NCBI GenBank assembly: GCA_043800255.1
Contig: JAZDNF010000009.1
Span: 128,001-192,000 of the forward strand
Length of the DNA: 64,000 nucleotides
Source: Candidatus Altiarchaeota archaeon
GTDB taxonomy: Archaea > Altiarchaeota > Altiarchaeia > IMC4 > SCGC-AAA252-I15
Reading direction: 5' to 3'
How positions within the stretch are numbered: position 1 is the stretch's first letter; each line of letters begins with the position of its first letter. The notes beneath the pieces are model-generated. The model had not been told where the DNA came from. It worked only from the letters and a program-made list of their open reading frames with translations, and did not search any database. Positions 5,958 through 27,995 of the stretch are shown here, one piece after another. The position numbers and the translations under genes were made by a program.

Positions 5958-6063
5958 TAGCCCGTTGCTCGGAATGGTTAGGTTAAGGACAGTACAAAGA
6001 GCGCGAAGACATAATTTCGCATGAGGTAGAACAAATCAATAAACACCCTACTGTTTCGGCATT

Positions 6064-6993
6064 TCATTGTTTTGCCGTAAGATTCAGACAGATGTCTTTC
6101 ATATTATATGCTGCGCTTTTTATTTCATTGCATAGGCTTGCGTTTCTGTTTTCGATTGCGTACCATTGGATACATAAATCCTGCTGAGTCTCGATTTTTT
6201 CCATAACGCATGAGAAATCACATGAAATTTTTCGACATTCTGTCCAGTCCTTGGTCGCTTTAGCCTTGCAGAATCCCCTGGATTTCGGCATGCCGGTAAG
6301 GTCGCATGCTGAGGTATCTCCCGTAGCAATCGCATAGTTTCTTATGCACTCTTCATATCCTATGGCAGTTAGATTAAACGCTTTGAGTGACATGCTACAT
6401 GCGTCAACGTTTCCTAGTTCAGCCCCAACCTTTGCCGCACATTCACCAAGTTTACCCTCACGCGACCATCCGTCCGCATCAACAATGGGTTCAGACATTA
6501 AGTAGCTACAATTATCAATAATTGCCTTCTCAAGCTCCGCGTGCTGTGCTTCTAAGTTGAATATAGAGAGATTAGTTCGTGCAATTATGGCCCCGCTGTC
6601 GTCTTTAATTGTCAGAAGCTCGATTATGTATTTGCCTGGCATGAGATTATGGTAATACTTGTTTTGTTCTACCCAACCAGGTGCCTTTGCAACGAATGTT
6701 TCATACACTGGCATTATCTCATTTCCGCCTTCATCAATGACTCTAAACCCATACGTTGTTCCTTTAGGAAGTCCTCTTTGCTGGAGAAAAAACCATTCGT
6801 TTGTTCCAAGGGATGTTACTACGTTTTTATCATTGTCTAGAACAACCACTTCGGCATCAGGAGAAATATTTTCAGAAATGCTCAAATTTAATCCGGGAGG
6901 GGTGGTGTGGGGAATAAGACCATTGAGAAAAAATATTAATAAAAGTATGAGAACAGCGAAAACGATGAATAAAAACAAATATTTTAGTCGCAT
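6064..6993 (-). CDS. Membrane-anchored Cys-rich extracellular protein
   Basis: N-terminal hydrophobic anchor. C-terminal repeats of the form C..(A/I)....D...C..I. Confidence 0.7.
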   Translation of the reverse strand: MRLKYLFLFIVFAVLILLLIFFLNGLIPHTTPPGLNLSISENISPDAEVVVLDNDKNVVTSLGTNEWFFLQQRGLPKGTTYGFRVIDEGGNEIMPVYETFVAKAPGWVEQNKYYHNLMPGKYIIELLTIKDDSGAIIARTNLSIFNLEAQHAELEKAIIDNCSYLMSEPIVDADGWSREGKLGECAAKVGAELGNVDACSMSLKAFNLTAIGYEECIRNYAIATGDTSACDLTGMPKSRGFCKAKATKDWTECRKISCDFSCVMEKIETQQDLCIQWYAIENRNASLCNEIKSAAYNMKDICLNLTAKQ

Positions 6994-7074
6994 ATATCAA
7001 GAATATACGTAACAATTTAAGAATATTGCTATTGTGGGTGGCCTCCGGGGGGGCTTTATACTTCTTATTAAACA

Positions 7075-8127
7075 ATGCTTACTATGAAAAATCGTGCTCT
7101 TTTCATGATTTTTATCTTGATTCTTATCGGAGTATCTTTTTACTACTATGAATTTGTTTATATTCCCAGTTCCGTAAAACTTTCTCCCCCCAGGGATTTG
7201 CCCTTTTTCAGTGTTTCATATGTCTACCAGATTCAACCTACTTCACCCATCACCTTTGCCTTTGGATCAGAGGCGGTATCGTCCATGGAATTAAGTCAGA
7301 AAATCGAGGGTGATTTGCACAATATAAAACAGATGGGGTTTGAGGGGGTTAAGTTATCGTTCCATTTTAGGGAGAACAATTATCTTCCAGAGAGGATTGC
7401 CCTGAAGGCTGCTAAAGAAGACTTGTATCCGATAGGTATTCTCATGGGCCATGACACCAAGCCCAGAGATAGGGCGTTTACTGAGGATGAACTGAGGGAA
7501 TGGGAATCCTTTGTAAGAACGGAGGTGAGGGCGAACAAGGGCATAATCTATTTTTGGGAGGTCTGGAATGAGCCAGACATTGATTTGTTCAGATATGGAA
7601 CGCCTGAAGAATTTCTAACGCTCCTTGAGAGGACGTACAAAATAATCAAAGAAGAGAACCCTCAAGCTAGGGTCATAGTAACCCTTGATGCTTTTGACAG
7701 GCGGCCGCGTGAATTTTCCGAGGGTTTATTGTCGTTGGGTGGTGGGGATTATTTTGATATTCTTAGCTTTCATCCCTATGGAGCGAATCCATACATACGG
7801 GAGGATGTTTTTAATGAGTCGATAGTCGAGGAGAAAGAGATGCTGGCAAGGTATAACAATCGGTGGCCGCTTTGGATAACTGAGATAGGCCAGCCAACAA
7901 GCGAAGTCTCTGAGGGAACACAGGCAGATTTGGCGGAATTAGTTTTCAAAACCGCTCACAAAGAGAGAATACCAATAATCTGGCTTCACTATTCTGATCA
8001 GAGACTATATCAGATTGGAGAAAGTTCTGGTTGGGGGTTGTTAGACATAAACGGTAATCCTAAACCAGTTTTTGAAAGAATAAAAGGAATTTTACAAGAG
8101 GCAGGTAAAGGAACAGTGAATTCTTGA
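7075..8127 (+). CDS. Membrane-anchored clan GH-A glycoside hydrolase (GH5/GH39-like)
   Basis: WEVWNEP acid/base motif, SFHPY, and LWITEIG nucleophile motif. N-terminal TM helix. Confidence 0.8.
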   Translation: MLTMKNRALFMIFILILIGVSFYYYEFVYIPSSVKLSPPRDLPFFSVSYVYQIQPTSPITFAFGSEAVSSMELSQKIEGDLHNIKQMGFEGVKLSFHFRENNYLPERIALKAAKEDLYPIGILMGHDTKPRDRAFTEDELREWESFVRTEVRANKGIIYFWEVWNEPDIDLFRYGTPEEFLTLLERTYKIIKEENPQARVIVTLDAFDRRPREFSEGLLSLGGGDYFDILSFHPYGANPYIREDVFNESIVEEKEMLARYNNRWPLWITEIGQPTSEVSEGTQADLAELVFKTAHKERIPIIWLHYSDQRLYQIGESSGWGLLDINGNPKPVFERIKGILQEAGKGTVNS

Positions 8128-14134: not shown

Positions 14135-15640
14135 ATGAAATACAAGGTAAGATTGTATGAGATCGAGACTGGGAAGCCTATCGTAGTCCTCAACGATGAG
14201 GACGTCGCGGAGATGGGCATCCACGTCGGCGACAGAGTCAAGATCATAAAAGGCAGCAAGGCAGTCACAGGCATCGTAGACACCACCACATCCTTCGTCA
14301 ACCCCGATGAGATAGGGATCTTCGAGGAAGTCAAAGAGTGCCTGGACGTGAAAGACGGAGACACCGTCGAAGTAAAGTCCACGGTGAGGCCGAAGTCGGT
14401 AGAGTTCCTGAAGAAGAAACTAAAAGGCGAGGAACTCCACGGCCACGAGATTAGGACCATAATACAGGATATCGTGGACAACAACTTGAGCGACATCGAA
14501 TTGAGCGCCTTCGTAACCGCATCATACATCAACGGCTACACGATGGACGAGATAGTAGCCCTTACAAACTCTATGGTCGAGACAGGAGACACCTTCGACT
14601 TCGGCGACGACACGGTGGACAAGCACTGCATCGGCGGCGTCGCAGGCAACAGAACGACTATGATACTCGTGCCAATTGTCGCGGCAGCAGGCCTCACCAT
14701 CCCGAAGACCAGCTCGAGGGCGATAACGTCGCCTGCTGGAACAGCCGACACCATGGAATTCCTCGCCAACGTCGAATTCGACATCGAAGAGCTCAAGAAG
14801 ATCGTGGCAAAGACCAACGGATGCATAGTCTGGGGTGGTGCAGTCAACCTCGCGCCAGCCGATGACAAGATAATAAGGGCAGAATATCCGCTCTCAATAG
14901 ACCCTGAAGGGCAGGTGCTGGCTTCGGTCATGGCCAAGAAGAAGTCAGTCGGCTCCGACTATGTGGTAATAGACATACCAGTCGGCAAGGGAACGAAGAT
15001 AGAGGACATGGACCAGGCTAACCTCCTCGCGAGGAAGTTCATCGAACTAGGCAACCGCCTTGAGATTTCAACAGAATGCATCGTCACCGACGGCAGCGCG
15101 CCCATAGGGAACGGCATCGGCCCAGCCCTGGAGGCACGCGATGTTTTGGACGTGCTCAACGGGAAGGGGCCGACAGACCTCGCTAACAAGTCAGTTGACC
15201 TAGCTGGCGTCCTCCTGGAGCTGTCTGGGAAGGTGAGGAAAGGCGAGGGCAGGAAAACCGCTGAAAGCATCCTCGAATCCGGCAAGGCGAAGAAGAAGAT
15301 GATGGAAATCATCGAAGCCCAGGGCGGCAACCCCAGGATAAAATCATCTGACATCCAGCTGGGGGACAAAACCTACGAAGTCCTCTCTGACATCAAGGGA
15401 AGGGTCAAGTTCATAGACAACAGCCTCATCTCAAAGGTCGCCAGGGCCGCTGGCGCGCCGAAGAACAAGGGCGCAGGCATCCTATTGCACGTAGGCGTCG
15501 GCGACAAGATCGAGAAGAACCAGAAGCTCTTCACCATATACTCTGAAGTCGAGGACAAGCTCGATTACGCGATAAAGACTAACGAGCAGCTGATACCAAT
15601 AAGAGTCGGCGGAGTCATACTGAAATCAGTCGTCAAGTGA
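14135..15640 (+). CDS. deoA: AMP phosphorylase (thymidine phosphorylase family)
   Basis: N-terminal double-psi barrel. DKHCIGGVAGNRTT and PKTSSRAITSPAGTADTME motifs. Confidence 0.95.
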   Translation: MKYKVRLYEIETGKPIVVLNDEDVAEMGIHVGDRVKIIKGSKAVTGIVDTTTSFVNPDEIGIFEEVKECLDVKDGDTVEVKSTVRPKSVEFLKKKLKGEELHGHEIRTIIQDIVDNNLSDIELSAFVTASYINGYTMDEIVALTNSMVETGDTFDFGDDTVDKHCIGGVAGNRTTMILVPIVAAAGLTIPKTSSRAITSPAGTADTMEFLANVEFDIEELKKIVAKTNGCIVWGGAVNLAPADDKIIRAEYPLSIDPEGQVLASVMAKKKSVGSDYVVIDIPVGKGTKIEDMDQANLLARKFIELGNRLEISTECIVTDGSAPIGNGIGPALEARDVLDVLNGKGPTDLANKSVDLAGVLLELSGKVRKGEGRKTAESILESGKAKKKMMEIIEAQGGNPRIKSSDIQLGDKTYEVLSDIKGRVKFIDNSLISKVARAAGAPKNKGAGILLHVGVGDKIEKNQKLFTIYSEVEDKLDYAIKTNEQLIPIRVGGVILKSVVK

Positions 15641-15823
15641 GTTCAGACGTTCTTTTTTTCTCTTACATTGCCTTGCGCTTTCTGCCATCTCCTTCGACTC
15701 TGGAATCTCAATCACGCCCTTATGCTTTGAGTAATCTTCTCCAGCGGCAGCGCCGCCCACCTTCACATTAGGAAGCTCAACACCCTCAAAAGTCCTGTGC
15801 CTCAGCCGGTTGATCATCATCAC
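15626..15823 (-). CDS. Small hypothetical protein
   Basis: Start overlaps the stop of the upstream ORF and follows GAGGAG. No recognisable motif. Confidence 0.35.
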   Translation of the reverse strand: MMMINRLRHRTFEGVELPNVKVGGAAAGEDYSKHKGVIEIPESKEMAESARQCKRKKERLNSLDD

Positions 15824-16362
15824 TCCTCGTCTGCCTTCCTAGCAGCCTTCTTGATGTCCTGTTTTTTATCATCGGTTAGCTCTTTGCCTTTGCGGAATTC
15901 GTTTACTGCGTCTAACACTCCGTCATCACCGGCCCACGCGTTCTCCTCTATCTTCTGAACGTACTGCTCGACTTCAGCCTTGTCGACGTATCCCGCCCCA
16001 TAACCTTTCATTATGTCAGGCGACACCCTCACAAGATGCTGTAATGAATCAGACCACTCCCGGGATTCCATGCTACCCTTAGCCAGGTTTATGCCCTCAT
16101 CGATTCTGTCAAGGGTAGGCTGCCATGCCTCAGACTGTACTCTCTCGCCTATCACCTTCCGGGCGAACTCAGCCTCCTCTATCTTCCTCTTCACCAGGTT
16201 AGCCCAGTCCTCGTCCCTCGTTGCCTTCCGTATCTCGTTTATGTCCTCCCTACTGAGGCCGTACATGTCCTCCCTAGTCATCTGATCAGGGTCCTTCTCC
16301 TTCGACATCTTCCCCAGCTGAGCCAGCTTCGCAATGCACGAAGGGCATAAATCGTGTGCCAA
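15820..16362 (-). CDS. Helical hypothetical protein, probably the frameshifted C-terminal part of 16364..18571
   Basis: TTG start 1 nt after the upstream stop. Begins with CPSC, complementing the CEEC at the end of the upstream ORF. Confidence 0.6.
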   Translation of the reverse strand: MAHDLCPSCIAKLAQLGKMSKEKDPDQMTREDMYGLSREDINEIRKATRDEDWANLVKRKIEEAEFARKVIGERVQSEAWQPTLDRIDEGINLAKGSMESREWSDSLQHLVRVSPDIMKGYGAGYVDKAEVEQYVQKIEENAWAGDDGVLDAVNEFRKGKELTDDKKQDIKKAARKADEE

Positions 16363-16363
16363 T

Positions 16364-18571
16364 TTATTTACCTCTCTTCTGTTTTATGAACGGCATACCG
16401 CATTCCTCGCATACCGCAACCTCCCAACCCTTCAGCTCCTCCTCAGGGTTCTCGGCCTCGGCAGCCTTCCTGATCATCTTATCAGCCACACTCCGCCCGT
16501 CAGCGCCCTCCTCCAGAATCTGAGGCGCCTTCTCCGCCTTGCCGACTAAGTCACCCACCACAGCGCCCTTATCCTTGAATCTGTCCGAGAGGCCGGCCTC
16601 CTCAACCCTGCCGAACACCTCCTTCACCCTCTCAGCCTCATCAGGCTTCAACCTCTCAAGCCTCCGCTCATCCACATGAGCCTTCCAAGCCCCAAGCTCG
16701 GCAGGAGCACCACGCCTCGGCCTCTCAACAGCAGACGGAGCCTCGATGGCAGCCTCAGGCCCGGCATGCGGGACTTCAGCACCCAAACCCTCGCCAGCTC
16801 TCCTGGGTTTGCCTTTGACTGCGTAGTCGCTCTCTGTTATTCTGGCTCCGGATGTTGCTGGAGGCATCTCGCCTTCTGGGATTGCTTCGCCGGCAGCCTC
16901 TGACAGCTCTTCTTTCCTCTCATGCTCAGCCTCGGTGAACTTCTCACGCTCCCTATCCCTCCACAGGCTGCTGAGATCCTTCTGCCTGCCAGCCTCCTCG
17001 CCAGCCGTCTCACCCTCCATCTGAGTCTCAGGAGGAACAACCGGCTTGGAAGGAACACCAGTCTCAGAGACGACACCGCCCTCGCCGGCAGCCGGGCGCG
17101 AAACCCTCGCGCCCCTGACAGCCTCAGTGGCTTTTCTGACATCATCCAGAGGAGCATGCCTGCCAGGCTCCTTCGCAGAAGCAGAGGGAATTATCTTAGA
17201 CGGCTCCCTCGCCCTCTCAACCGAAGCGGGAGTGACATCATTCAAATCCCTGCCAGGCCTCTGCACGCTGGGTGAGCCGGCTCCGGGAGCAGTATGCCTG
17301 CGAGAACTCCAGAACGAACACCCAGGACGATTATACTCGTAGTCGCCGGTCGCCCTGAAAGCCATCCTACCGGCGCCAGGCGTCATACTATACCATCCTG
17401 ACCTCTCCCCCGCATAATAGCCGCCCTCGGTGTAGGCGACAACCTCCTCACCGGATAGGCCTCGGGAATAGTAGAGTGCGGAACCAAGCCTCTCACCGCC
17501 ACGCTCACTCCACCCCATAGTATGAGTCGTCTGATAACGGCCGCCTGCCGCAGCTATCGCCGAGGAGAAGCTGCTGCCCTGCATCATAAGCGCTATCGGC
17601 CTCGTGAAAGTCGCACCACCCCTCGACGAGTAAGCGAACACTGTGCCGCCAATCCACGGCAGAATCTTGGAAACGAGGAGCGGCGTCAACACTATGCCCA
17701 AAAAGCTCGCCAATGTGAGCACAGCATTGATTATGCCAGAGCCGCCGGAACTTAGGAAGGTGATGCCCATCGCGAGGAAGCCCATCTGGAAGACCTGAGT
17801 GAAAATCACAGCAATCGAGAAATTTATTATGGCATTGCCCATACCCTTAGTCAGCCTGAAAGACCACAGGAATATGCCAAGAGGGAACAGCGCAGCGCAC
17901 ACTACCACAACAAAATACCGTATAGCCGCAACCAGCACCGCCATCTGAACAAACCATAAACCAAACTGCCATATGCAGAACCCGATTATCAGCGCACCCG
18001 CCGGCACCTTGAATATGTCAAAGACGCTCGTAAGCTCAGTGTCAACAGACAACGCCATAGCATCCACAATCTCCCCAGAAATGTTAAGCAAAGTCTGGAA
18101 TATCAAAGGCGAAATCGAAGTCAACACCAAGCCTATGAAAACGTCCAACAGCATCGACTTCGCCTGAGCCCTCCCCCGAACAGAACCCTGCATGAAAATC
18201 AGATACAACCCCAACAGTATCAGCAGAGTCACGAAAAACGGGACGAAAAGCTTCAGCAACGTCCCGTTAATATTCTTCACGGTAGTGTCCTCCTGCAGCG
18301 GGAAATAGAAGAATGAGCTGCTCTCGAAGTACTCGCAGTAGCCGCCAGTCTCCCCCACCACGCACGGGTTAACCCGTATTATAAAAACCAGAAAATAGAA
18401 CGCCTTCTCCAGGAAGAGGTTAGCGCCAGTCGTGAGGAAATCAGCACTCTCCGCAGGAGTCGTCTCCTTATAAGGCGGGACAGCAGCAAACACCAAAGGA
18501 GAGAACAAGAGAGTTAACACTATGAGCAAGGCAAACCAACTCATCCCGGATTTCAGAATACGTTTCATCAT
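16364..18571 (-). CDS. VirB6/TrbL(CedA)-like polytopic membrane protein with long low-complexity tail
   Basis: Signal peptide and about 7 TM helices. RYFVVVVCAALFPLGIFLWSFRLTKGMG motif. Paralogous to the N-terminus of 18584..22855. Confidence 0.6.
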   Translation of the reverse strand: MMKRILKSGMSWFALLIVLTLLFSPLVFAAVPPYKETTPAESADFLTTGANLFLEKAFYFLVFIIRVNPCVVGETGGYCEYFESSSFFYFPLQEDTTVKNINGTLLKLFVPFFVTLLILLGLYLIFMQGSVRGRAQAKSMLLDVFIGLVLTSISPLIFQTLLNISGEIVDAMALSVDTELTSVFDIFKVPAGALIIGFCIWQFGLWFVQMAVLVAAIRYFVVVVCAALFPLGIFLWSFRLTKGMGNAIINFSIAVIFTQVFQMGFLAMGITFLSSGGSGIINAVLTLASFLGIVLTPLLVSKILPWIGGTVFAYSSRGGATFTRPIALMMQGSSFSSAIAAAGGRYQTTHTMGWSERGGERLGSALYYSRGLSGEEVVAYTEGGYYAGERSGWYSMTPGAGRMAFRATGDYEYNRPGCSFWSSRRHTAPGAGSPSVQRPGRDLNDVTPASVERAREPSKIIPSASAKEPGRHAPLDDVRKATEAVRGARVSRPAAGEGGVVSETGVPSKPVVPPETQMEGETAGEEAGRQKDLSSLWRDREREKFTEAEHERKEELSEAAGEAIPEGEMPPATSGARITESDYAVKGKPRRAGEGLGAEVPHAGPEAAIEAPSAVERPRRGAPAELGAWKAHVDERRLERLKPDEAERVKEVFGRVEEAGLSDRFKDKGAVVGDLVGKAEKAPQILEEGADGRSVADKMIRKAAEAENPEEELKGWEVAVCEECGMPFIKQKRGK

Positions 18572-18583
18572 CTCATTGACCTC

Positions 18584-21500
18584 TCAAGCCCCCTCTATCG
18601 CCTCCCTCGATTTAGTCTTATGATTGTAAGCTTCCACCCTGTCTCCGTCGAATATTATGCCGCCCCCTCCCCCACCGTAGGCGTCTGCCATCCCAGCATC
18701 AACGTTGATTATTCTCCCACCATACTGCTGGTTGACTCGGTTATCTCTCCTGTCAGGGATGTGCGCGTGGACTATCCGCTCAACTCCAAGCTCTCCTAGA
18801 AGCTGACCTAATGCCCGCTCTTTCTTTGGAGTTCCAATTGCCCAGTAATCTTGCAAATTGAGATTAGGATCCCTGCGAGTTGCATCGAATGCTCCATTAA
18901 CATCACCGAAACGCTTTTTCCCTTCACCATTCAACTCTAATCCGCCTAGAGCATGATACCATTCCCAATTACGCTGCGTATCCCCAGCCCACATGGGAGA
19001 GTTCCCGCTATTCCACCTGTTAAAATCGAGGTTCCCTCCGCTCATGTCTTTTTGCATCTCCTGCATGCCCTCAAGGCCAGTCTTTCCTTTGTAGGGTATC
19101 CAGTCGCCATTCTGATCCAACGGCAATCCAGCGTGCACGAAGAGTGCGTTGTTCTCAAGATGGTATATGCTGCCTTTCGCCCCCATCTGCTCCGCCATCC
19201 TCTGAAGCCGCGGATTGTTCATAGCGCCCCGCTGGTCTGAAGCACCCACCTCATTCAGAACTTTGTCACCTCCGTTGTACATCCAGTTCTGGTACGCATT
19301 CGTATCCCCCTGCATCGCTGCCATGAAGAAGAGATCGTGATTTCCTAACAGTCCAACCGCCCTGCCCTGGTCGATAAGACCGCCATCTCCGAACACCTGC
19401 TCAGCTACAGCAACCCCCTGATCACCCCTGTCCATATAGTCCCCATGGAATACGAACCTGTCGCCGCTGTGAGCCTCCATGATCTCCTGAAACCTGCCCA
19501 ACTCCCCATGCTGGTCTCCGACCGCCATAAGCCTGTTGTATTTACCGCCAGTCGATTCACCGACGGGGATGATACTGCCGTCAGACTGTGGTCCCGCCAA
19601 AATCACAGGCTCGCCGGCGGCTGCTTCGGTTACGGGCTGGGCGTTTGGCGTCGACTCATGCGCATGAGCAGGAGCAACAGGTGGCTTCTCCGGCTCCGGA
19701 GGTCTCTCTGGCCTAGGGCCGCCTGAGGATGGTGGCCGGCCTCCTGACGGACCAGCACCTCCTCCAGAGCTGCCCGGCTTTTCGACCCTGCGCTTCCCGC
19801 GCCGTTCCTTAGCCAGCCTCCTCGCGCCCAACGCGGCCCCAATCCCCAAGCCTATGGCCGAACCTAAGAACGGAACAGGAAGAACGGTTCCAACAGCCAT
19901 TCCAGCACCAAGATAAGGAGCTAACGTCCTCAAACGCTTCCATTTCGGATACTTGTACTTGCCGCTCACTATGTCATCGTATATGCCGAACGCCTTTCTT
20001 TTCGACTTGGTGCCCTGGAGGTTCATCTCATCCAGGCGTTTCTTTGCCTTCCACTCCTCATTCTTGCCTACTGCACCAACAGCGTATTCGTTTGGAGACT
20101 TCACATGCAGCATCCCATTCCTCTTCGAGGCGAGCTCCCGGTGCCTGTAACCCAACGTCTTATCCCCGGTTGCCTTCTCAGCGAACTTCAACTTATCATC
20201 AAAGCCCATTGTTCTCTTCTCATCCCTGTTAAGACCTCTGACGCCGTCTTCAAACTGGGCGTCAGCTTTAATCCAGCGCTCATTGTCCACGACGCTGGAA
20301 AAACCGTTCTCCTTCGCGCGTGCGAGCATCTCCCCGTACTCGCCCTCATCTCTAAGACCTTCAAGATCGGATTTCCCCGGCCCCAACAGCTCGTCCAGAG
20401 ACTGCAACTTGTCGAATGCGTCGCCGGCATTAACAAGGCCTAAATCCTCGCCCAAGGGATTGTCAATCTCCTCATCCCTGAGATTTTGAATCTCGTCACT
20501 AACCCTGCTTATCTCCCCAGTATCCTCGATCATTCTGCCTAACCGCTCATCATGCTCATCCCCAAGTTTGAGCTTATCCTTAACAGACTCAACTCTCTCC
20601 TCGGGTTTCCCGGCGGAATCTTTTATCGCCTTCTCAATATCCCTCTTACTGTTGCCTGTCTGAGCCTCAAGATCCGCGATGTCAGACTGCCTCCTATCCT
20701 TCCTGTGCTCAACCTCGGCGTTCAGGACTTCCAGCTTCCGCATCTTCTCGTTTTTCCCCAACGCCTTCTGCTTACCCCTGAGACCGTCAACCTCATGATC
20801 GTATGCGCTGCCTCTCGTCTGAAGCACCTCCGCCACATCGCCAACTCCAGCGTCTATCTCAAGAAGAGAGTAAGCGCCTAAAACCTTCTTACCGTCTGCT
20901 GATGGGATGGCTCCAGGGCCCCCGCCAGGCTTCCCGCCTGCTGAACCCTCCCCACCGGATCCGCCCTTATCAGGCGCTCCACCAGGCTTGCCTCCCGGAG
21001 GCCCACCACCAGGCGTCCCCCCAGCACCAGGAGCAGGCCCTCTAGCAGCAGCCCTTGTCGTATCAGCCATCTGCTCCCGCCTACGTTTATCAACCCCTTT
21101 GACTATTTTGCTGACTCCGATGGTGGCCGCGATTCCGATGCCGACGCCGCCGAAAAGGGACATGGATGACAGGAGTGCCAAGCTGACGCCAGCATGCGAT
21201 GCGAGCATGCTAGTGGGAGCCTGCGCTATCTTCCTGCGCATGTAAGTGCCGAAGATGCTCACACTATTCGGACCCTTGTAACCTTTGTCAGACTTGCCCT
21301 TACCCCTCATCCTATCCCTGGCTCTCACATCCAGCTCAGCCTTCGCGAGCTTCCAATCCCTGTCTTTAGTAATCTGGGGGAACAATTTACCCCACTCAGT
21401 ATACTCTTTCGTTTCCTTATCCCGCTCAATGCCAGCGCCAAGCGCCCGCCCCATATGACGAGCGTAACCCTTAAGGAACGGCGGCAAAACGTACATCTTC

Positions 21501-22855
21501 TCCGCCCCGGCAGCTGTGAACACCTTCCCAATAGGCTGCACCGCAGTCAAAAGGCCATCCTTTGCAGCACCAGTCAGAGACTCCATAAGACCCCTCTTCT
21601 GCTGCGTGCTGGTCGAGCCCATCCGCCCCCCATACAAGAAATTGTCGACAGCCCCATCCCAACCACTCCGACTGAAAACGCCCTTACTGAGTTTACCGCC
21701 TCCAGCATCCTTGATACCATGATAGACTCCTCGCACGCCTCGGGCAGGCTTGCTGACGTCTCCTCCCGGGCGGGCGACTTCAGGCCTGCTGTCCTGATAC
21801 TCATCCCATCCCGCCTTTCGGAATCCTGTGAACGAGCCCGCAGCCTCCAAAGCCCACGGGCCGCTGCCCATCATAAGCTGACCTACCGCTATCATCTTCG
21901 GACTGCCCCAGTACCCTCCAGCTGCATTAACATAACTCCCCAGTGAGCTCATGAGGGTGGTCATCATCAGAGGCGAGATGATGATCATGGCAAAGCAGAC
22001 TATGGCAAGCAGAGCGCCTAACACGCCCTGAAAGTCAGCTAACAATGAGAGGAACATGACATAGAACAGCGTCTGGAGAACGGGGATTGAAATCCAAATG
22101 AGCGTCCACCTCATCAACTTAGCGCCCAACTTCTTCGTGTAATCCCACATGTAGAAGAAGATGGTTATGGGAAAGAAGGCGCCAAGTATGGCAACCACAA
22201 GATACCTCACATAGACCATGATAGCAGCAAGAAGTATCAGAAGTAGCACAATCCATCCGACCGTGCAAAGGAAATGAGGGAAGAACAGGAGAACCAGGAG
22301 GAGTATGACGCCGTTCATGGCCGCATTCCAGTCCCCTCCCGGAAACGCGGTCGTGAATATGGAATCAACCATCGCCTTCTCGATGTCAAGAATCATCTGA
22401 TATATCATCGGGGCGAAAGTCACGATAACGAGGCCGAAAAACAGCCGAGTGATGTACTGTTTAGCGTGCGCCCTCCGCCTATAGTCCATGGACACGAATA
22501 TCAGATACATCCCAGCCAGGATGATCACGCCCATGTAAGCTGGGATAACAATCAGCATCGCAAGCCTACTGATGTCCTTATAGGAACCGGTAAGCTGGCC
22601 AGTGCCCCAGTCGTAGATGTTAGGATTTAAGGACAAACCATCGAGAAGCAATCCAGTAAACCACCTCACGCCGTCCATCAAAAACCCTGAGAGCCAGTCG
22701 ATGATCTTACCTATCAGCCCCGGACCAGCACCAACGCCCTTGCCCATAGCGCCCGTCGAACCAACCTTCTCATCCCCAGAAGCAAAAAACGAGAACAATA
22801 GGAGTAAGGACGAGAAGAGTAGCGTCAACTTGATAATCTGATGCCTACTTTTCAT
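18584..22855 (-). CDS. VirB6/TrbL-like membrane domain fused via Gly/Pro-rich and coiled-coil regions to a C-terminal PPP-family metallophosphoesterase
   Basis: N-terminal TM bundle with RYLVVAILGAFFPITIFFYMWDYTKKLG. C-terminal GDQHG, GDYMDRG, GNHD, FVHAG, HAH and VDAGM motifs. Confidence 0.7.
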   Translation of the reverse strand: MKSRHQIIKLTLLFSSLLLLFSFFASGDEKVGSTGAMGKGVGAGPGLIGKIIDWLSGFLMDGVRWFTGLLLDGLSLNPNIYDWGTGQLTGSYKDISRLAMLIVIPAYMGVIILAGMYLIFVSMDYRRRAHAKQYITRLFFGLVIVTFAPMIYQMILDIEKAMVDSIFTTAFPGGDWNAAMNGVILLLVLLFFPHFLCTVGWIVLLLILLAAIMVYVRYLVVAILGAFFPITIFFYMWDYTKKLGAKLMRWTLIWISIPVLQTLFYVMFLSLLADFQGVLGALLAIVCFAMIIISPLMMTTLMSSLGSYVNAAGGYWGSPKMIAVGQLMMGSGPWALEAAGSFTGFRKAGWDEYQDSRPEVARPGGDVSKPARGVRGVYHGIKDAGGGKLSKGVFSRSGWDGAVDNFLYGGRMGSTSTQQKRGLMESLTGAAKDGLLTAVQPIGKVFTAAGAEKMYVLPPFLKGYARHMGRALGAGIERDKETKEYTEWGKLFPQITKDRDWKLAKAELDVRARDRMRGKGKSDKGYKGPNSVSIFGTYMRRKIAQAPTSMLASHAGVSLALLSSMSLFGGVGIGIAATIGVSKIVKGVDKRRREQMADTTRAAARGPAPGAGGTPGGGPPGGKPGGAPDKGGSGGEGSAGGKPGGGPGAIPSADGKKVLGAYSLLEIDAGVGDVAEVLQTRGSAYDHEVDGLRGKQKALGKNEKMRKLEVLNAEVEHRKDRRQSDIADLEAQTGNSKRDIEKAIKDSAGKPEERVESVKDKLKLGDEHDERLGRMIEDTGEISRVSDEIQNLRDEEIDNPLGEDLGLVNAGDAFDKLQSLDELLGPGKSDLEGLRDEGEYGEMLARAKENGFSSVVDNERWIKADAQFEDGVRGLNRDEKRTMGFDDKLKFAEKATGDKTLGYRHRELASKRNGMLHVKSPNEYAVGAVGKNEEWKAKKRLDEMNLQGTKSKRKAFGIYDDIVSGKYKYPKWKRLRTLAPYLGAGMAVGTVLPVPFLGSAIGLGIGAALGARRLAKERRGKRRVEKPGSSGGGAGPSGGRPPSSGGPRPERPPEPEKPPVAPAHAHESTPNAQPVTEAAAGEPVILAGPQSDGSIIPVGESTGGKYNRLMAVGDQHGELGRFQEIMEAHSGDRFVFHGDYMDRGDQGVAVAEQVFGDGGLIDQGRAVGLLGNHDLFFMAAMQGDTNAYQNWMYNGGDKVLNEVGASDQRGAMNNPRLQRMAEQMGAKGSIYHLENNALFVHAGLPLDQNGDWIPYKGKTGLEGMQEMQKDMSGGNLDFNRWNSGNSPMWAGDTQRNWEWYHALGGLELNGEGKKRFGDVNGAFDATRRDPNLNLQDYWAIGTPKKERALGQLLGELGVERIVHAHIPDRRDNRVNQQYGGRIINVDAGMADAYGGGGGGIIFDGDRVEAYNHKTKSREAIEGA

Positions 22856-23315
22856 AAGAACCCCATAATCTTCCGGAGCTCCTGTGAGAGGTTAAAGTCC
22901 TGTTGTCAAGATAGTCAACCGCAAGAAGCACCTCAAACCTCCCGCCAGCCTCACCCTCGCGTATAACCGTTGTGTTAATGTTCTGTATGCTCCCCGGCGG
23001 GACTTCAACAGGAAGCGACGGTTGGAGAACGACAGACTGTAATGTTCCACCGACTACAACCTGAACGTCGGTGATGTTAACAGACCCCCCGACTTCGTTA
23101 ACAAACGATATTGATAGGTTGCCCTCTTCAACCATTTTGAAATCTGCAGGCATTAGACCCCAGAAACCCAGAGAACCAGGAGCGATATCACCGCCGATGT
23201 TGAACAGGCCCAGCTGCCATGCCATCAGGATGGCAACAATAAGCAGGAGAAGAGCCCAACCATAGGTCATAAGAAACTCTAACGCGCCCTGACCTTTGGT
23301 GGACTGGATTCTCAT
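22845..23315 (-). CDS. Class III signal peptide (type IV pilin-like) protein
   Basis: KG|QGALEFLMTYGWALL prepilin-peptidase cleavage motif followed by a hydrophobic helix and a beta-rich domain. Confidence 0.85.
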   Translation of the reverse strand: MRIQSTKGQGALEFLMTYGWALLLLIVAILMAWQLGLFNIGGDIAPGSLGFWGLMPADFKMVEEGNLSISFVNEVGGSVNITDVQVVVGGTLQSVVLQPSLPVEVPPGSIQNINTTVIREGEAGGRFEVLLAVDYLDNRTLTSHRSSGRLWGSYEK

Positions 23316-23394
23316 CTTAGAGGCTAGAATAACCCAATACTATATTAAAAGCAGAACAATAAAAGGTGTTAGAAGCTGGAGAAAGCTGCAGATT

Positions 23395-25155
23395 TCAACG
23401 TCTGACAGAGGTCTCGCTATCCCACATGTCACCTGGATTATCTTCCCGCCTTATCAGGAACCTCCCAATGACCAGACAGTCTATTCTGGTCCCCATCATG
23501 CACTTGTACGCATCAGACGGCGTGCAGACTATCGGCTCCCCGCGCACATTATAGGATGTGTTTATCAGCATCGGCACTCCTGAAAGTTTTCCGAACTCCT
23601 TGATCAGGTCATGGTAGAGTGGATTCTGGGATCGCCTGATGGTTTGCAGCCTCCCCGTGCCGTCAACGTGGGTTACGGCAGGTATTCTCTGACGCCACTT
23701 TTCTTTGACAGGATATACCATCAGCATATAGTATGTGGGCTCAGGCAGGGGAACATCACATTCGAAAAAATCCAGCGCATCGTCCTCGCACACTACGGGA
23801 GCGAACGGCCTGAAACCCTCCCTATGCTTCACCTTCATGTTGAGTATGTCCTTCATCTCCGGGTTGATAGGGTTCGCAAGTATGCTCCTCGATCCTAATG
23901 CCCTCGGCCCCCACTCCATCCTACCCTGGAACCATCCGACAATCTTGTCGTCGAATATCAGCTTAGCGGTCTGTCCTATGAGGTCACCATCATTCTCGAA
24001 CTGGGAGTAGATTATTCCGTTCCCGTCTAAGAACTCCCTTATCTCATCGGCTGAGAACTCCGGGCCCAGGTAGGCTGTTGAAAGTGGCGTCTCGCGCGGT
24101 CTCTTGAGCAGCGTATGGTAGAGGTAGGCTGCGACGCCTGCGCTTGTCCCGCCGTCGCCTGGATCCGGATGGATCCAGACATTCTTGAAAGGAGTATTCT
24201 TCAGTATCTTCCCGTTCAACACGCTGTTCAAGCCGACGCCACCAGCCAGCACAAGATTCTCGCAGCCGGTCTCATCATACAGGCTGTTGACAAGTTTAAG
24301 AACGATATCCTCCGTCAGAAGCTGAAGGGCTGCGGCAATGTCCTTGTGCCTCTGCGTCAACTCAGCACCTTCCGTTCTTACTGGGCCTCCGAGAAGATCA
24401 CAAAGTTCTCGGCTCGGCATTCTGTCCTTGTAATGATATGCAAAGTAGCGCATGTCAAGCCTGAAGCTTCCATCATCTTTCACGTCAACCGCTTTTTTCA
24501 GCCGTGAAAAATAGTTGTTAGTCTCCCTGTCCATGTCACCGTAGGCGCTCAGACCCATAACCTTGTACTCGGAGTTGTTCACCTTGAAGCCGAGGTAAGC
24601 TGTTATGGTCGAATACAGCAGCCCGACAGAATGCGGAAACCGTATCTCCCTGAAGAGGGCGATGTCATTCCCCTCAGCGGTTCCATAGGCTGTGGTGGTC
24701 CACTCTCCAACGCCGTCTACGGTAAGAACTGCCGCCTTCTTGAACGGACTAATGAGATAACTTGAGGCTGCGTGCGCCATATGATGTTCCACGAACAGCA
24801 CATTCCCCCTATAGCCTATGGACTTCCGAACTTTCCGCACAACCCTCAGCTTCTCGGTCAGCCAGGAGGGCATAGAAGTGACGAACGTCTTAAGGCTCCG
24901 GGGGAACGTCTGGATGTGCTGGTAGAGCACTCTCTCGAACTTTATGAACGGTTTCTCATAGAAGCCGACATAGTCCAAGTCGGCTGAGGTAATGCCTTCG
25001 CTTTCAAGACAGAACCTTATCGCGTTGATTGGAAACGAATTATCATGCTTCTTTCTCGTGAACCTCTCCTCCGCAGCAGCTGCGACAATTCTGCCGTCCT
25101 TCAGGAGGCATGCTGAAGAATCGTGGTAGTAACATGATATTCCTAGGATGTGCAT
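23395..25155 (-). CDS. O-carbamoyltransferase, NodU/CmcH (SxtI-like) family
   Basis: ILGISCYYHDSSACL, EERFTRKKH, HHMAHAAS, RMEWGPRALGSRS, FRPFAP, THVDGTGRLQT and NTSYN motifs. Confidence 0.95.
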   Translation of the reverse strand: MHILGISCYYHDSSACLLKDGRIVAAAAEERFTRKKHDNSFPINAIRFCLESEGITSADLDYVGFYEKPFIKFERVLYQHIQTFPRSLKTFVTSMPSWLTEKLRVVRKVRKSIGYRGNVLFVEHHMAHAASSYLISPFKKAAVLTVDGVGEWTTTAYGTAEGNDIALFREIRFPHSVGLLYSTITAYLGFKVNNSEYKVMGLSAYGDMDRETNNYFSRLKKAVDVKDDGSFRLDMRYFAYHYKDRMPSRELCDLLGGPVRTEGAELTQRHKDIAAALQLLTEDIVLKLVNSLYDETGCENLVLAGGVGLNSVLNGKILKNTPFKNVWIHPDPGDGGTSAGVAAYLYHTLLKRPRETPLSTAYLGPEFSADEIREFLDGNGIIYSQFENDGDLIGQTAKLIFDDKIVGWFQGRMEWGPRALGSRSILANPINPEMKDILNMKVKHREGFRPFAPVVCEDDALDFFECDVPLPEPTYYMLMVYPVKEKWRQRIPAVTHVDGTGRLQTIRRSQNPLYHDLIKEFGKLSGVPMLINTSYNVRGEPIVCTPSDAYKCMMGTRIDCLVIGRFLIRREDNPGDMWDSETSVRR

Positions 25156-25159
25156 TTTA

Positions 25160-25462
25160 TCAAAACTGTCGATAGTAATCCTTAAAACTTTTTTGTTTCA
25201 GGTTCATGTCTTCCCAGTAGCTGTCCCTGTCTTCGGTTCTCAGCGACAGGAAGTCTTTTTCGAAAAGTCTTGCAAACAGTGAGGTGAATCCAACACCAAA
25301 AAAATACACAAATGTTAGCGATATATAGTTCACAGCATTTGAGACAATTTTGCCGAACTCTTGGAAGAGCCGCCTAAAATCCTTGGATATTAAGTTCAGG
25401 ATGAGAACAAGCGCGATAACATACAAAAGTATCATGTAGGGGATATTAGAAAGAAGGTTCAA
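25160..25462 (-). CDS. SxtJ-like small membrane protein
   Basis: LTFVYFFGVG...LFARLFEKDFL...SYWED...YYRQF C-terminus, next to the carbamoyltransferase. Confidence 0.7.
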   Translation of the reverse strand: MNLLSNIPYMILLYVIALVLILNLISKDFRRLFQEFGKIVSNAVNYISLTFVYFFGVGFTSLFARLFEKDFLSLRTEDRDSYWEDMNLKQKSFKDYYRQF

Positions 25463-25465
25463 AAA

Positions 25466-25627
25466 TCAGAATAAAGTGTATATGAAAGGAGACACTGCAG
25501 TACTCTGCCCGAATACTATGAGAATGCCGACCAAAAGTAGCATTATTACTATGGGAGTGAGCCACCACGCCTTCCTCACCCTGAGAAAATCCCACATTTC
25601 AACGATCAGAGACTTATTTTTTGCCAT
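25466..25627 (-). CDS. DUF5989/SxtK-like 53-aa membrane protein (absent from the ORF track)
   Basis: Own translation: MAKNKSLIVEMWDFLRVRKAWWLTPIVIMLLLVGILIVFGQSTAVSPFIYTLF, with the family-typical RK.WWL.P and PFIYTLF end. Confidence 0.85.
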   Translation of the reverse strand: MAKNKSLIVEMWDFLRVRKAWWLTPIVIMLLLVGILIVFGQSTAVSPFIYTLF

Positions 25628-26135
25628 CTTTCATTCCCCTCACCGCAGCCAACACAATCTCCAGAGTGCCGGGGATGTCCCAGTGTTCCGTGTTCAGGAT
25701 GATATCGTATATCATTAGGTCTTCCAAGTCGATGCCGTATATCCCCTTATACCTTTTTCTCTCGCTCGCCTCCCGCCCCAGTATCGCATCCTCCGGGTCT
25801 CTCGTCTTGTCCCTGACGCTGACGCGCCGAGCCCTGACTTCGAGAGGAGCCGTCAGGAAGATCTTCAGATCAGAGTCTATGAAGTGCGCTGAAATCCTGC
25901 CGTCGACCACGCAGTCGCCCTTCGCCTCACGCCTCTGCCGCTCGTCGATCTCCCTGTCGACTTCCGGATGGCGTTCAGCGTATTCTGAGAATTCCAAAAG
26001 ACGCATATTCCTCTCAGAAGCCATCTGCCGCATTATACTGCCTGCGGATATGTGCCGGTATCCGAGTTCGCGGGCGAGGCCCTCAGCCAGCGTCGTCTTG
26101 CCAGAACCTGCTGAACCGGCTACGGTTATGATCAT
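25614..26135 (-). CDS. cmk: Archaeal cytidylate kinase
   Basis: GSAGSGKTT, ISAGSIMR, VDGRIS and RYKGIYGID motifs. Position after L34e. Confidence 0.92.
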   Translation of the reverse strand: MIITVAGSAGSGKTTLAEGLARELGYRHISAGSIMRQMASERNMRLLEFSEYAERHPEVDREIDERQRREAKGDCVVDGRISAHFIDSDLKIFLTAPLEVRARRVSVRDKTRDPEDAILGREASERKRYKGIYGIDLEDLMIYDIILNTEHWDIPGTLEIVLAAVRGMKDGKK

Positions 26136-26136
26136 C

Positions 26137-26592
26137 CTACGCTTTCTTCGGTTTTTTCTTAGAAGTCTTCTTGGACGATCTCTTTTCCTTCACAGGCTTC
26201 TCTTCCTTTTTCTTCTCGACTACCTTCTTAGCCTTCCTCTTGAATGGCTTCTTAGGCGTCCTCCCCATCTTCTGGCCTGAGCTTACTCGCTCCCACCAGC
26301 CCCTCGGAAGGAACTCCTCCAGTGTGAGGTCTCGTCTGAGGTCAAGGTCATTGTGCTCCGGATAGTGGAATTTGACCCTGAACCGGGTACCATATCTTAT
26401 AAGCTCTTCGGTGCAGTTCACGCACAACAGGCCGGCGTACATCCTCTCGCCGCCGTCGGTTATCTGCACGCCGCATCTCCCGCACGCAGGCAGGTTCTTC
26501 TTCTTGTCCTTGTAGTGTGTTACAGTCCTGCCGCCCGGCGTCCTCCTCTTCACCTTCTTCGTTGACCGTGACCTGTACTTTGGTGCGACCAT
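26137..26592 (-). CDS. rpl34e: 50S ribosomal protein L34e with C-terminal extension
   Basis: YRSRS..KVKRRTPGGRTVTHY, CGRC, ERMYAGLLCVNC. Conserved adk-DUF106-L34e-cmk order. Confidence 0.88.
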   Translation of the reverse strand: MVAPKYRSRSTKKVKRRTPGGRTVTHYKDKKKNLPACGRCGVQITDGGERMYAGLLCVNCTEELIRYGTRFRVKFHYPEHNDLDLRRDLTLEEFLPRGWWERVSSGQKMGRTPKKPFKRKAKKVVEKKKEEKPVKEKRSSKKTSKKKPKKA

Positions 26593-26594
26593 CC

Positions 26595-27020
26595 TTAGTA
26601 ATTACCAAACATCTTATTTAATACCATCGAAACCAGCATCGAACATATGAAATACCACCCGAACCAGCCGAGCTGGATTCCGAACACGGTTGCAACGATT
26701 CCGATTTCGGCATACCTGCGCTGAATCCAGGAGAACACGAGCAGGAAGGGTATCATCGTGTACATCATCGGCTTGAAGGAGTGCTTCATGTTATCCATCA
26801 TGTGAGTCATCATCTCGTCCTGCGCCTTCTTCGCCTTCTTGGAGTCGCCGGACTTCGTAGCCTCCTTCAGCAGCTGCTGGTTCTTTTTCATCTTCTCCTT
26901 CGCCTCCAGCATCTTATCCTTGTCGACGACGGCCCTCCTGACGAGGGAGCTCATCATCATAAGAGCGAACGATATCACCGCTATCTCCCAGCCAGCAGTC
27001 GTAATCAGAAAATCCATCAC
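26595..27020 (-). CDS. DUF106 / EMC3-TMCO1 (Oxa1 superfamily) membrane insertase
   Basis: TM, coiled coil, SFKPMMYTMIPFL, and GWFGWYFICS. Operon context. Confidence 0.88.
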   Translation of the reverse strand: MMDFLITTAGWEIAVISFALMMMSSLVRRAVVDKDKMLEAKEKMKKNQQLLKEATKSGDSKKAKKAQDEMMTHMMDNMKHSFKPMMYTMIPFLLVFSWIQRRYAEIGIVATVFGIQLGWFGWYFICSMLVSMVLNKMFGNY

Positions 27021-27598
27021 CCGCTCCCCAATATCCCCTTCATCTCCTTCACGGCCTTCCCTATCTGCCCCTGGGGATTTTCGACAACCTTTATCGAGGC
27101 GCCGCTTATCACAGAATACGCCCCCGCTACGATACGGTTGAAATCTTGGTGGAACATCAGCTCTTTCACGCCGTCATCGTCCCTGTCTCTCGACTTGTCA
27201 CCCTCTCTCCGCTTTAGGATATCCTCGCCCTTCACTTCGACGATGACTATGCAGTCAGCGTCCAATATCTTGAGAACCTCCTCAGGCAGCCCGGGGAGGA
27301 AACCACGCGACGTTTTGATGGTGCAGTGAGTGTCCAACAGCACATTCCCCCGCTGGCTCTTCTTGTGAATCGCCTCAGCAGCGGTCTTCTGTATCCTCTT
27401 CTGGTCTTCCAACGGCAGCTTCCTCATCTCATCCCTGTCCTCGACCAGTTTCTTGGCTTTGGCTATGTCGAACATCACAGTCCCATAGGTGATGATCTCA
27501 TAGTCCACGCCCTCCGACTTCAGCTCCTCCACAGCCTTCCCGGCCACGGTCGTCTTCCCAGATCCTGGAACGCCGGTCACAATAACAAGCATTTTCAA
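27017..27598 (-). CDS. adkA: Archaeal adenylate kinase
   Basis: VTGVPGSGKTT, RDEMRKL and LDTHCTIKTSRGFLPGLP motifs. Confidence 0.95.
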   Translation of the reverse strand: MKMLVIVTGVPGSGKTTVAGKAVEELKSEGVDYEIITYGTVMFDIAKAKKLVEDRDEMRKLPLEDQKRIQKTAAEAIHKKSQRGNVLLDTHCTIKTSRGFLPGLPEEVLKILDADCIVIVEVKGEDILKRREGDKSRDRDDDGVKELMFHQDFNRIVAGAYSVISGASIKVVENPQGQIGKAVKEMKGILGSG

Positions 27599-27656
27599 AA
27601 AAAAGATGAGTTAATAATGAGGTGGATATGTATTTAAAATAACTTAAGAAGAAGGT

Positions 27657-27995
27657 TTAGCCGGCGCATCCGCCTCCCATCACCAGCGCCACAATCTCCA
27701 CAGCCAAGACCACGATAATCAATCCGACGATGGTGTGAGTTATGCTCTCCTTCGCCTTCTTCGCCGAACCCTCCTCGGCAGAATCCCGCATAATCCTCCA
27801 GCCGTTAACTGCAATCAGAACTATCGCAAGGCCTGCTGCAACTATCTCGAAGAAAACCTTAACGTTAGTCAAAATCCCGCAGACAAGCGAGGCGGCGGCC
27901 GTCGCCGCTGTCGTCCCAGGCACCTGCGCGCTAACAGCGCCAACCATCAGAAACAAAAGCGCTAAAGCAACTTTTGCCATGTAATATATGCTCAA
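27657..27995 (-). CDS. VirB2/TrbC-like (CedA1-like) pilin
   Basis: Signal peptide ending VSAQ, then two TM helices around GWRIM.DSAEEG.AKKAKESI...IVGLIIV. Confidence 0.65.
   Translation of the reverse strand: MSIYYMAKVALALLFLMVGAVSAQVPGTTAATAAASLVCGILTNVKVFFEIVAAGLAIVLIAVNGWRIMRDSAEEGSAKKAKESITHTIVGLIIVVLAVEIVALVMGGGCAG

Follow-up and report, generated by a model that had tools for sequence, protein, structure and literature searches.

Two large genes lying end to end on the chromosome of an uncultivated archaeon raise the question of what kind of machine their products belong to. The two proteins share an N-terminal membrane domain and then diverge into long tails; a type IV pilin gene overlaps the start of the first, and a pilin of another type is encoded nearby. 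The locus sits in a 64,000-nucleotide stretch of a Candidatus Altiarchaeota archaeon genome, called the window hereafter (G000:C7:128001-192000; handles in G, C, L and f stand for genomes, contigs, loci and families). This archaeal genome is 1.75 Mb long, falls into 17 contigs and is 93% complete. The original prediction, made from the window alone, proposed a chromosomal, domesticated apparatus related to type IV secretion systems (T4SS) as well as to the Ced DNA-import system, with tandem extended VirB6-like proteins carrying cargo domains and with two types of pilin. Every open reading frame (ORF) that it listed is present at the coordinates given below, including the overlap and the 735-residue paralogue downstream. 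With a probability of about 0.7, the two genes encode satellite long and short VirB6-type subunits of a chromosomally fixed, order-wide minimal apparatus derived from a T4SS. This apparatus would be a variant of the domesticated Ced/Ted-like T4SS.

The long gene (18584-22855, on the minus strand like the short gene, the two pilin genes, the two small ORFs and the promoter element described below) encodes 1423 residues, as characterised by its ORF, BLASTP paralogy, an AlphaFold2 (AF2) model, fold matches and hydropathy. The short gene (16364-18571, 735 residues) begins 12 nucleotides (nt) past the stop codon of the long one. Their membrane domains correspond in both cases to residues 1-340, encoded at 21836-22855 for the long protein (P0001) and at 17552-18571 for the short one. 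Compared by BLASTP, the two proteins align significantly in one place only, where residues 91-330 of the long protein pair with 97-332 of the short one (E 4e-22, with 25% identity across 245 columns); the two tails are unrelated, since all remaining segments have E-values of at least 0.37. The sequence motifs noticed at first reading coincide with the most conserved columns of the family (R128, A131, K132, R217, F228, P229, T240 and G244), and the common transmembrane bundle with unrelated tails is thus borne out. In the long protein, residues 1-340 comprise a signal peptide, a VirB2-like hairpin and a VirB6-like helical bundle. Hydropathy analysis gives the signal peptide and five to six hydrophobic stretches within residues 94-306, which together with the AF2 bundle make up the polytopic membrane architecture expected of VirB6/TrbL, in an orientation that can be predicted only. 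Residues 88-153 resemble a T4SS pilin hairpin, with Pfam T4SS_pilin scores of 21.7-24.4 bits, under the cut-off of 26.6, and of 28.6 bits in the whole-genome scan.

The extent of the family became apparent through an exhaustive HMMER search with residues 1-340, a word-indexed search having returned the query alone. It retrieved 273 library representatives at E ≤ 1e-3, including 138 at E ≤ 1e-10. Among the 150 listed representatives, the match lies in the N-terminal part of proteins of 195-2584 residues (median about 738), 65 of them at least 900 residues long. Ten representatives were examined for their source, and the two that bear source names are both hypothetical proteins of 'Candidatus Altiarchaeota archaeon' metagenome-assembled genomes.

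Direct sequence evidence that this domain is VirB6 is weak. Neither window protein has a Pfam TrbL match at E ≤ 1, and the family profile retrieves no VirB6 and nothing related to T4SS from the PDB sequences (best E 0.8). Pfam TrbL matches, weakly, nine of the 46 aligned family members at E ≤ 0.01 (best 3.1e-6), and T4SS_pilin matches the first hairpin in 13 of the 46; the short paralogue of the core locus on contig C5, described below, gives a TrbL E-value of 3.9e-4 (20.7 bits, under the 25.9 cut-off). The AF2 model of the membrane domain, computed from the family alignment, is a helical bundle with a predicted local distance difference test score (pLDDT) of 86.2 and a predicted template-modelling score of 0.77. 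When this model was compared by Foldseek with 350,542 PDB chains, the top five matches were all TrwI/VirB6 of R388, with probabilities of 0.84-0.97 at E-values of only 0.04-0.25 and template-modelling scores of 0.27-0.41, none reaching E ≤ 0.001. VIA-align, run on 48,161 chains, ranked DotA first (Z 9.5 over 209 residues) and TrwI/VirB6 second (Z 8.3 over 213 residues), values to be read with the warning of the tool itself that helical bundles commonly give Z below about 13. In most of the other rows shown, the alignment is limited to about 46-78 residues within the hairpin region (90-161), although 90-154 are aligned in a few. In the ESM Atlas, the named clusters nearest to the 735-residue protein carry TrbL_3 and T4SS_pilin (score 0.93, 208 shared features).

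The direct sequence evidence being so limited, it is the combination of these structural leads and ESM clusters with the genomic context that makes the membrane domain very probably VirB6-type. The VirB6/TrbL likeness first proposed from the letters alone is thereby supported by the relatives, two structure searches and the ESM Atlas. A joint structure prediction of the long and short membrane domains scored 0.00, which speaks neither for nor against their binding. The pair could in principle belong to an unrelated transporter or other membrane family that resembles VirB6 only as a helical bundle, all direct matches being below the usual significance thresholds. This is extremely improbable, since the TrbL profile in relatives, both structure searches and the ESM features agree independently, and since the paralogues show conserved linkage with VirB4, PrgI and VirB2-like pilins.

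This linkage is found elsewhere in the genome. As had been stated at the outset, the 64-kb window contains no VirB4-like or CedB ATPase and no relaxase; the VirB4-like matches of the genome lie on C5 and at C7:198071, the nearest one past the window end. The VirB6-like domain occurs five times in the genome: twice in the window, twice on C5 (1749 and 596 residues) and once on C8 (708 residues). A genome-wide search provided, beside the two C5 paralogues and about 10 kb from them, a VirB4-like ATPase together with a PrgI/VirB3-like partner. The original prediction was to be given up if the genome had no VirB4/CedB-like ATPase and the gene neighbourhood was not conserved, and it survives because the C5 VirB4 is present. 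This ATPase matches P-loop_TraG (96.4 bits for a cut-off of 25.8), AAA_10 (57.7 for 27.5) and also DUF87. NF045971, the CD1110-family VirB4, gives an E-value of 2e-91 and 307.4 bits, just under its cut-off of 325, and CagE_TrbE_VirB gives 17.2 bits for a cut-off of 21, so that several profiles match and none does so at equivalog level. The PrgI/VirB3-like gene, 5' of VirB4, encodes 305 residues with 64% identity to its G043 orthologue, on which the PrgI profile scores 31.6 bits for a cut-off of 27. A pilin and the long and short paralogues lie upstream, and two proteins with T4SS_pilin domains, of 739 and 131 residues, follow VirB4.

The order of this core locus, namely pilin, long VirB6-like gene, a gene for about 170 residues, short VirB6-like gene, a gene for about 350 residues, PrgI-like gene, VirB4 and pilin-domain genes, is shared by G043, G038 and G050, and in part by G005. 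Set against the first three of these, the own locus has an insertion between the ~350-residue gene and the PrgI-like gene (C5:62102-68584), with two genes read as radical-SAM-like, two TPR genes and one KaiC-like gene. In family f6 (G027, G024), the VirB6-like genes form arrays of five, mostly of about 310-420 residues, with one of 666 residues in G024. The VirB4 gene of f6 is followed by a protein of about 590-600 residues (L050:3522-6990 in G024; L052:5799-7613 in G011). In G024, this protein appears in Pfam as a fusion of Mrr-type restriction-endonuclease and PAP2 phosphatase domains, with an SPFH/Band-7 protein between it and VirB4; the 604-residue protein of G011 was matched to it by its similar N terminus only. 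The match at C7:198071-198526, 6 kb past the window end, is a 183-residue frame with 35% identity to the C-terminal 155 residues of the VirB4-like ATPase (E 5e-19), and comparable frames of about 190-240 residues occur in G048, G050 and G037. As for the C8 paralogue of 708 residues, a secreted-looking protein of 2650 residues with no Pfam match (C8:158469-168552, L016) is encoded immediately upstream of it, and ribosomal and translation genes surround both.

Pilin domains are abundant in this genome. PF18895 (T4SS_pilin) was found at 22 places, 18 of them above the cut-off: five VirB6-like hairpins, one site in the 739-residue protein and 16 small ORFs, of which 11 are in tandem. These eleven genes lie within 3.7 kb (C8:144028-147683, 26.6-50 bits), an unusually large array for one genome. 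The 739-residue protein (C5:72025-74244, L015:6025-8244) looks secreted; its pilin hairpin spans residues 283-335 (32.8 bits), and a thrombospondin type 3 repeat is weakly matched. It is 35% identical to its G043 counterpart and could be a pilin-anchored adhesin or tip protein.

The core apparatus thus comprises VirB2-like, VirB3-like, VirB4 and VirB6-like components, and neither a coupling protein nor a relaxase was found among the families searched. In this 93% complete genome, NF045973 gave no coupling protein and PF02534 only a 19-bit match to a P-loop; neither of the relaxase families PF03432 and PF02486 was detected. This bears on whether the locus could be a part or a remnant of an integrated conjugative element and not a system owned by the host. 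In that direction point the conjugation-type lineage of the VirB4 (CD1110, MPF-FATA-like, where MPF stands for mating-pair formation), the second, divergent VirB4 of some relatives, which may be mobile, and the fact that four genomes belonging to the same family lack the pair where it would be expected. Such an origin is nevertheless very unlikely in view of the missing relaxase and coupling protein, of the absence of any tRNA gene from the window, and of the synteny, tree and conservation detailed hereafter.

The distribution was established on 61 genomes of the phylum, where families f1-f6 account for 47 genomes plus the own one, f7 for one and f8-f9, the two other families of the class, for 12. 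The VirB6-like profile is positive in 48 of the 61, that is, in all 47 of f1-f6 and the own genome, and in none of f7 (0/1) or f8-f9 (0/12). Positive genomes have 1-19 matches, often in tandem. The VirB4 protein query is positive in 45/61 (44/47 in f1-f6, 0/13 in f7-f9). VirB4 and the VirB6-like family therefore have the same phyletic pattern, nearly order-wide and with 0/12 genomes of the sister orders. The best full-length VirB4 matches are 55-77% identical across the order, against 35-62% for adenylate kinase; a VirB4 more conserved than this housekeeping enzyme hardly fits a conjugative element. Close VirB4 loci were also sought in a collection of species genomes: 24 were obtained, labelled Altiarchaeales/Altiarchaeota (14), 'uncultured archaeon' (7), 'Methanobacteriota archaeon' (2) and 'Euryarchaeota archaeon' (1). 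The second, divergent VirB4 paralogues (33-42% identity, about 790-1140 residues) occur in G039:C14, G040:C24, G041:C33/C26, G038:C51, G043:C43 and G032:C94, and may belong to true mobile elements.

The window pair itself is a conserved satellite copy beside the adk-cmk cluster, syntenic between housekeeping genes in several genera. The order found in G044 is that of the window: adk, DUF106, L34e, cmk, one gene, type IV pilin, long gene (1480 residues), short gene (694 residues) and a convergent AMP-phosphorylase gene, with 45% identity for the pilin and 80% for the AMP-phosphorylase. G045 shares this arrangement as far as the long gene, and G035 up to the end of its contig, which falls inside a gene. 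A tree of 26 membrane domains shows locus-specific clades, with Shimodaira-Hasegawa-like approximate likelihood ratio supports of 99 for the long copies of the adk locus, 99 for its short copies, 98 for the core short copies and 53 for the core long copies; the long copies of the adk locus group with the core long ones (94), and the short window protein with its G044 orthologue (99). Since these clades are locus-specific, the VirB6-like paralogues must predate these genera, which further argues against a conjugative element. Synteny, tree and order-wide conservation together indicate a domesticated, vertically inherited chromosomal system, as had been anticipated.

The two pilins relate differently to this system. 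The gene at 27657-27995, 4.3 kb upstream of the candidate operon, encodes 112 residues with a Pfam T4SS_pilin (PF18895) score of 31.0 bits for a cut-off of 26.6; TrbC/VirB2 gives 19.5 bits, under 27.9. Its translation reads as a signal peptide followed by two hydrophobic helices with a charged loop between them. Profile and small two-helix build are those of a VirB2-type pilin, and it has 60% identity (E 1e-26) with the core-locus pilin encoded ahead of the long VirB6-like gene. Its VirB2-type identity thus stands, but its supposed membership of a conserved module does not. Housekeeping genes lie in the interval between it and the operon: Pfam identifies a carbamoyltransferase and an EMC3/DUF106 protein, and the translations alone suggest adenylate kinase, L34e and cytidylate kinase. 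The strand orientation first described is correct, but the co-oriented run from 27995 to 22845 is thus interrupted. The position of the pilin also varies: no such gene is found between adk and the next gene in G039, where adk directly adjoins the homologue of the window gene at 28637, nor upstream of adk in G044 and G045. It lies in about 1 kb of extra DNA and is a dispersed paralogue without syntenic link to the pair.

The other pilin gene (22845-23315, 156 residues) overlaps the start of the long gene by 11 nt at its 3' end. A class III signal is recognised by prepilin peptidase at a defined site, and here the pattern [KR][GA]Q..[LI]EF, with Q9 and E13 invariant in the alignment of 11 orthologues, predicts cleavage at KG|Q with Glu at +5. 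The Pfam Class_IIIsignal profile gives only 11.2 bits for a cut-off of 23.7. The AF2 model (pLDDT 84.1) combines an N-terminal helix with a beta-sandwich, and Foldseek ranks two archaeal type IV pili highest, 8fk7 at E 2.6e-4 and 6nav at E 4.2e-4. Two Peptidase_A24 genes above the cut-off supply prepilin peptidases in the same genome. With the signal, the fold and the peptidase all present, this protein is a genuine archaeal type IV pilin, and its family occurs in 49/49 genomes of the order.

Its overlap with the long gene suggests another possibility, in which the two large proteins would be accessory membrane proteins of a type IV pilus, working with this class III pilin and a pilus ATPase independently of VirB4. 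The stop codon of the pilin overlaps the start of the long gene by 11 nt in the window, L033 and L035 and by 4 nt in L034, and, by coordinates, the pilin orthologue and a VirB6-like gene are adjacent in G043, G046 and G005 as well. Yet in seven of the eight relatives examined there (G050, G039, G033, G051, G023, G031 and G007), the pilin orthologue still stands after cmk although no VirB6-like gene follows it, so that its gene is anchored to the cmk cluster and not to the VirB6-like genes. As the nearest paralogues are neighbours of VirB4 and PrgI, with type IV pilus genes not among their company, and as the fold and family leads point to VirB6, there is very little likelihood that the two proteins serve a type IV pilus in this way. 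Of what was originally said about this pilin, its identity and the overlap hold, but a fixed tie to VirB6-like genes is not supported.

The tails are the most unusual part of the pair. That of the long protein is rich in Gly, Lys and Arg, with two glycine-zipper hydrophobic segments (residues 555-585 and 985-1010), and that of the short one is rich in Glu, Ala and Arg, with no recognised domain. At the extreme C terminus of the long protein (18587-19588, residues ~1090-1423) lies a calcineurin-like metallophosphatase domain of predicted PPP/ApaH type, intact-looking by its motifs. It scores 23.9 bits with Pfam Metallophos for a cut-off of 21.5 and 24.9 bits with FBPase_2, under 27; the NCBIfam ApaH (E 5.9e-8) and Pnkp (E 2.6e-5) matches are both far under their cut-offs. 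The metal-binding motifs of such metallophosphoesterases (GDxHG, GDxxDRG, GNH[DE]) are present as GDQHG, GDYMDRG and GNHD, with the later His motifs VHAG and VHAH. No PDB sequence matches this domain at E ≤ 0.01, and besides itself its homologues are two proteins of near length and a longer one (P0160), which is not VirB6-like.

A catalytic-looking domain in such a position suggests an exported cargo or polymorphic effector: the tails, phosphatase included, would be delivered to the surface or to neighbours, and the small ORFs would be immunity proteins or adaptors. In line with this possibility, divergence is much more rapid in the tails than in the membrane domain. Between genera, the membrane domains of syntenic orthologues are 33-39% identical, whereas no similarity between their tails reaches E < 0.009; within one genus, the tails retain 32% identity against 55% for the membrane domain. 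The lengths of the family (195-2584 residues) likewise cover a wide range, and the two ORFs that follow the pair, of 180 and 65 residues, are lineage-specific. Nevertheless, among the 33 long relatives scanned (the first 33 by rank of 65), the window protein alone carries Metallophos/FBPase_2, one other having HHH_5, and the syntenic orthologues have no Pfam tail domain at E ≤ 0.01. A helix-hairpin-helix motif had been thought visible in the tails of two relatives and was dropped, Pfam giving the syntenic orthologues no domain. The phosphatase-bearing gene is followed by the short VirB6-like gene and not by a small immunity-like ORF. Lys/Arg clusters stand on either side of both glycine-zipper segments, and this charge pattern suggests that the tails are cytoplasmic and not exported, the zipper segments being then probable re-entrant anchors. 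A cytoplasmic tail also agrees with the canonical VirB6 topology, N-out and C-in. Delivery of the tails as cargo thus appears unlikely, and cargo domains on the channel subunits were an overstatement: there is one domain in the 1423-residue protein, none in the 735-residue one, and none in the orthologues. The expected variability of the tails across genomes was found, and is high, but their charge pattern points to the cytoplasm and not to export.

Along with the weak direct scores of the membrane domain, several of these observations weigh against the T4SS-derived apparatus favoured here. The window is devoid of ATPase, the linkage to VirB4 being seen for the paralogues at G000:C5 and in G043, G038, G050, G005, G027 and G024 and not for the window pair, which would use the C5 VirB4. 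The VirB6-like family is present without VirB4, by the protein query and by NF045971, in G021 (92% complete), G022 (73%) and G044 (82%). The pair is absent at the same chromosomal position in G050, G039, G033 and G051, and is therefore dispensable or was gained later. The pilin orthologues that stand without a VirB6-like gene speak against a universal role of the pair. The topology of the tails is predicted from the positive-inside rule.

If the pair does belong to a T4SS-derived apparatus, the following mechanism may be proposed. Once the signal peptide is removed, the pilin-like hairpin and the helical bundle would enter the membrane, where the membrane domains would provide the platform or channel in which VirB2-like pilins are extracted and polymerised. 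A single VirB3/VirB4 motor would power both extraction and polymerisation, and the window pair would supply alternative platform subunits, co-transcribed with the type IV pilin. The long, fast-evolving tails would remain in the cytoplasm, held by the glycine-zipper hairpins, as scaffolds or recruitment arms, that of the long protein ending in this genome in the predicted phosphatase. The likeliest output would be pilus-mediated cell-cell contact with exchange of macromolecules (DNA), of the Ced/Ted kind.

Ced in Sulfolobales and Ted in Thermoproteales are described by Beltran et al. 2023 (PMC9905601) as chromosomal T4SS-derived DNA-import systems that combine a VirB2-like pilin with a VirB6-like membrane protein and with an ATPase of VirB4-like type, and that have no relaxase. 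The Altiarchaeales apparatus, known from its genes alone, has the same VirB2/VirB6/VirB4-type build, again with no relaxase found (compare PMC9905601). Further likenesses to the same account are the pilin-like N terminus of the VirB6-like protein, reported for CedA/CedA1, and a signal peptide that looks cleavable, as described for TedC (PMC9905601). In contrast, there is no membership by sequence, since the NCBIfam CedB profile gives 51.8 bits for a cut-off of 700 and CedD 60.7 for 600. The phylum is a different one, and the system is set further apart by its PrgI/VirB3-like gene and by the presence, in a single genome, of five VirB6-like paralogues, whose tails reach about 1400 residues, together with 16 small pilin genes. 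MPF-FATA-type conjugation systems of monoderms show likeness through their VirB4, CD1110 being the best family (307 bits), and through PrgI, T4SS_pilin (PF18895) and VirB6-like components. The T4SS of Patescibacteria is similarly host-wide and not on plasmids, and the portion of its description consulted (PMC12102498) does not mention VirB6-like tails or a paired long/short arrangement. Unlike these systems, the one studied here has a VirB4 just under the cut-off of 325 and no coupling protein or relaxase found with the families searched. Nor did a VirB8-like protein turn up, no search aimed at VirB8 or VirB1 having been made. The best structural matches, R388 TrwI/VirB6 (7o3v, 8rtd, 8rt9) and DotA of Dot/Icm (9ngy), extend over more than 200 residues, but at 9-18% sequence identity, and no VirB5 or IcmX partner was identified here. 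Tandem extended VirB6 paralogues are found in the rvh system of Rickettsiales, and TraG of the F plasmid and TcpH of pCW3 are also extended VirB6-type proteins. They likewise have a VirB6-type domain fused to large extra parts, and tandem paralogues, but they are bacterial and lie within or beside a T4SS, whereas the additions seen here are C-terminal, mostly of low complexity and very fast-evolving. The best reading is that the apparatus may work in the manner of Ced/Ted or of the Patescibacteria system, although by sequence it is no member of Ced.

To our knowledge, domesticated archaeal T4SS-like machines have come only from two crenarchaeal orders (Ced, Ted). No publication linking Altiarchaeota to VirB4 or VirB6 was found in a literature search whose scope excluded supplementary tables, which may list such genes. 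A comparable system would here be kept almost universally by an uncultivated order, with VirB4 at 55-77% identity across families. Its paired long/short VirB6-like subunits, satellite copies of the pair, long tails turning over between genera and large pilin repertoire are unusual, and touch on the question of how a T4SS could function in the absence of a coupling protein. They also offer targets for metaproteomics, for pilus cryo-electron microscopy and for cryo-electron tomography of Altiarchaeales biofilms. The Altiarchaeales lineage has two membranes. A bolder proposal, speculative and rather doubtful, would make this T4SS the third independently domesticated one in archaea, with giant-tail VirB6 paralogues that replace the coupling protein in recruitment or span the envelope, and with Ups-type adhesion and Ced-type transfer wired in one operon for the exchange of DNA or proteins between biofilm cells.

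As to the operon, the element TTTTAATATA (23341-23350), read from the sequence 26-35 nt 5' of the ATG of the type IV pilin, is one which we take to be TATA-like by comparison with the archaeal TATA consensus. It is the candidate promoter of a putative five-gene operon running from 23315 to 15626. The fourth gene (15820-16362), 1 nt after the short VirB6-like gene, encodes an acidic soluble protein of 180 residues that has no family above the cut-off in Pfam or NCBIfam and no similarity to the 179-residue protein encoded between the core-locus paralogues; the corresponding place in G044 holds no equivalent of it, and it is absent from L033. The last ORF (15626-15823, 65 residues) overlaps it by 4 nt and may not be a real gene. 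At the edges of the window, G+C falls to 0.38-0.43 (positions 1-8000 and 62001-64000), compared with 0.48-0.57 over most of its length. The ORF at 63021-64073 begins like an integrase by eye, a candidate only, and the low-G+C ends may represent a foreign island.

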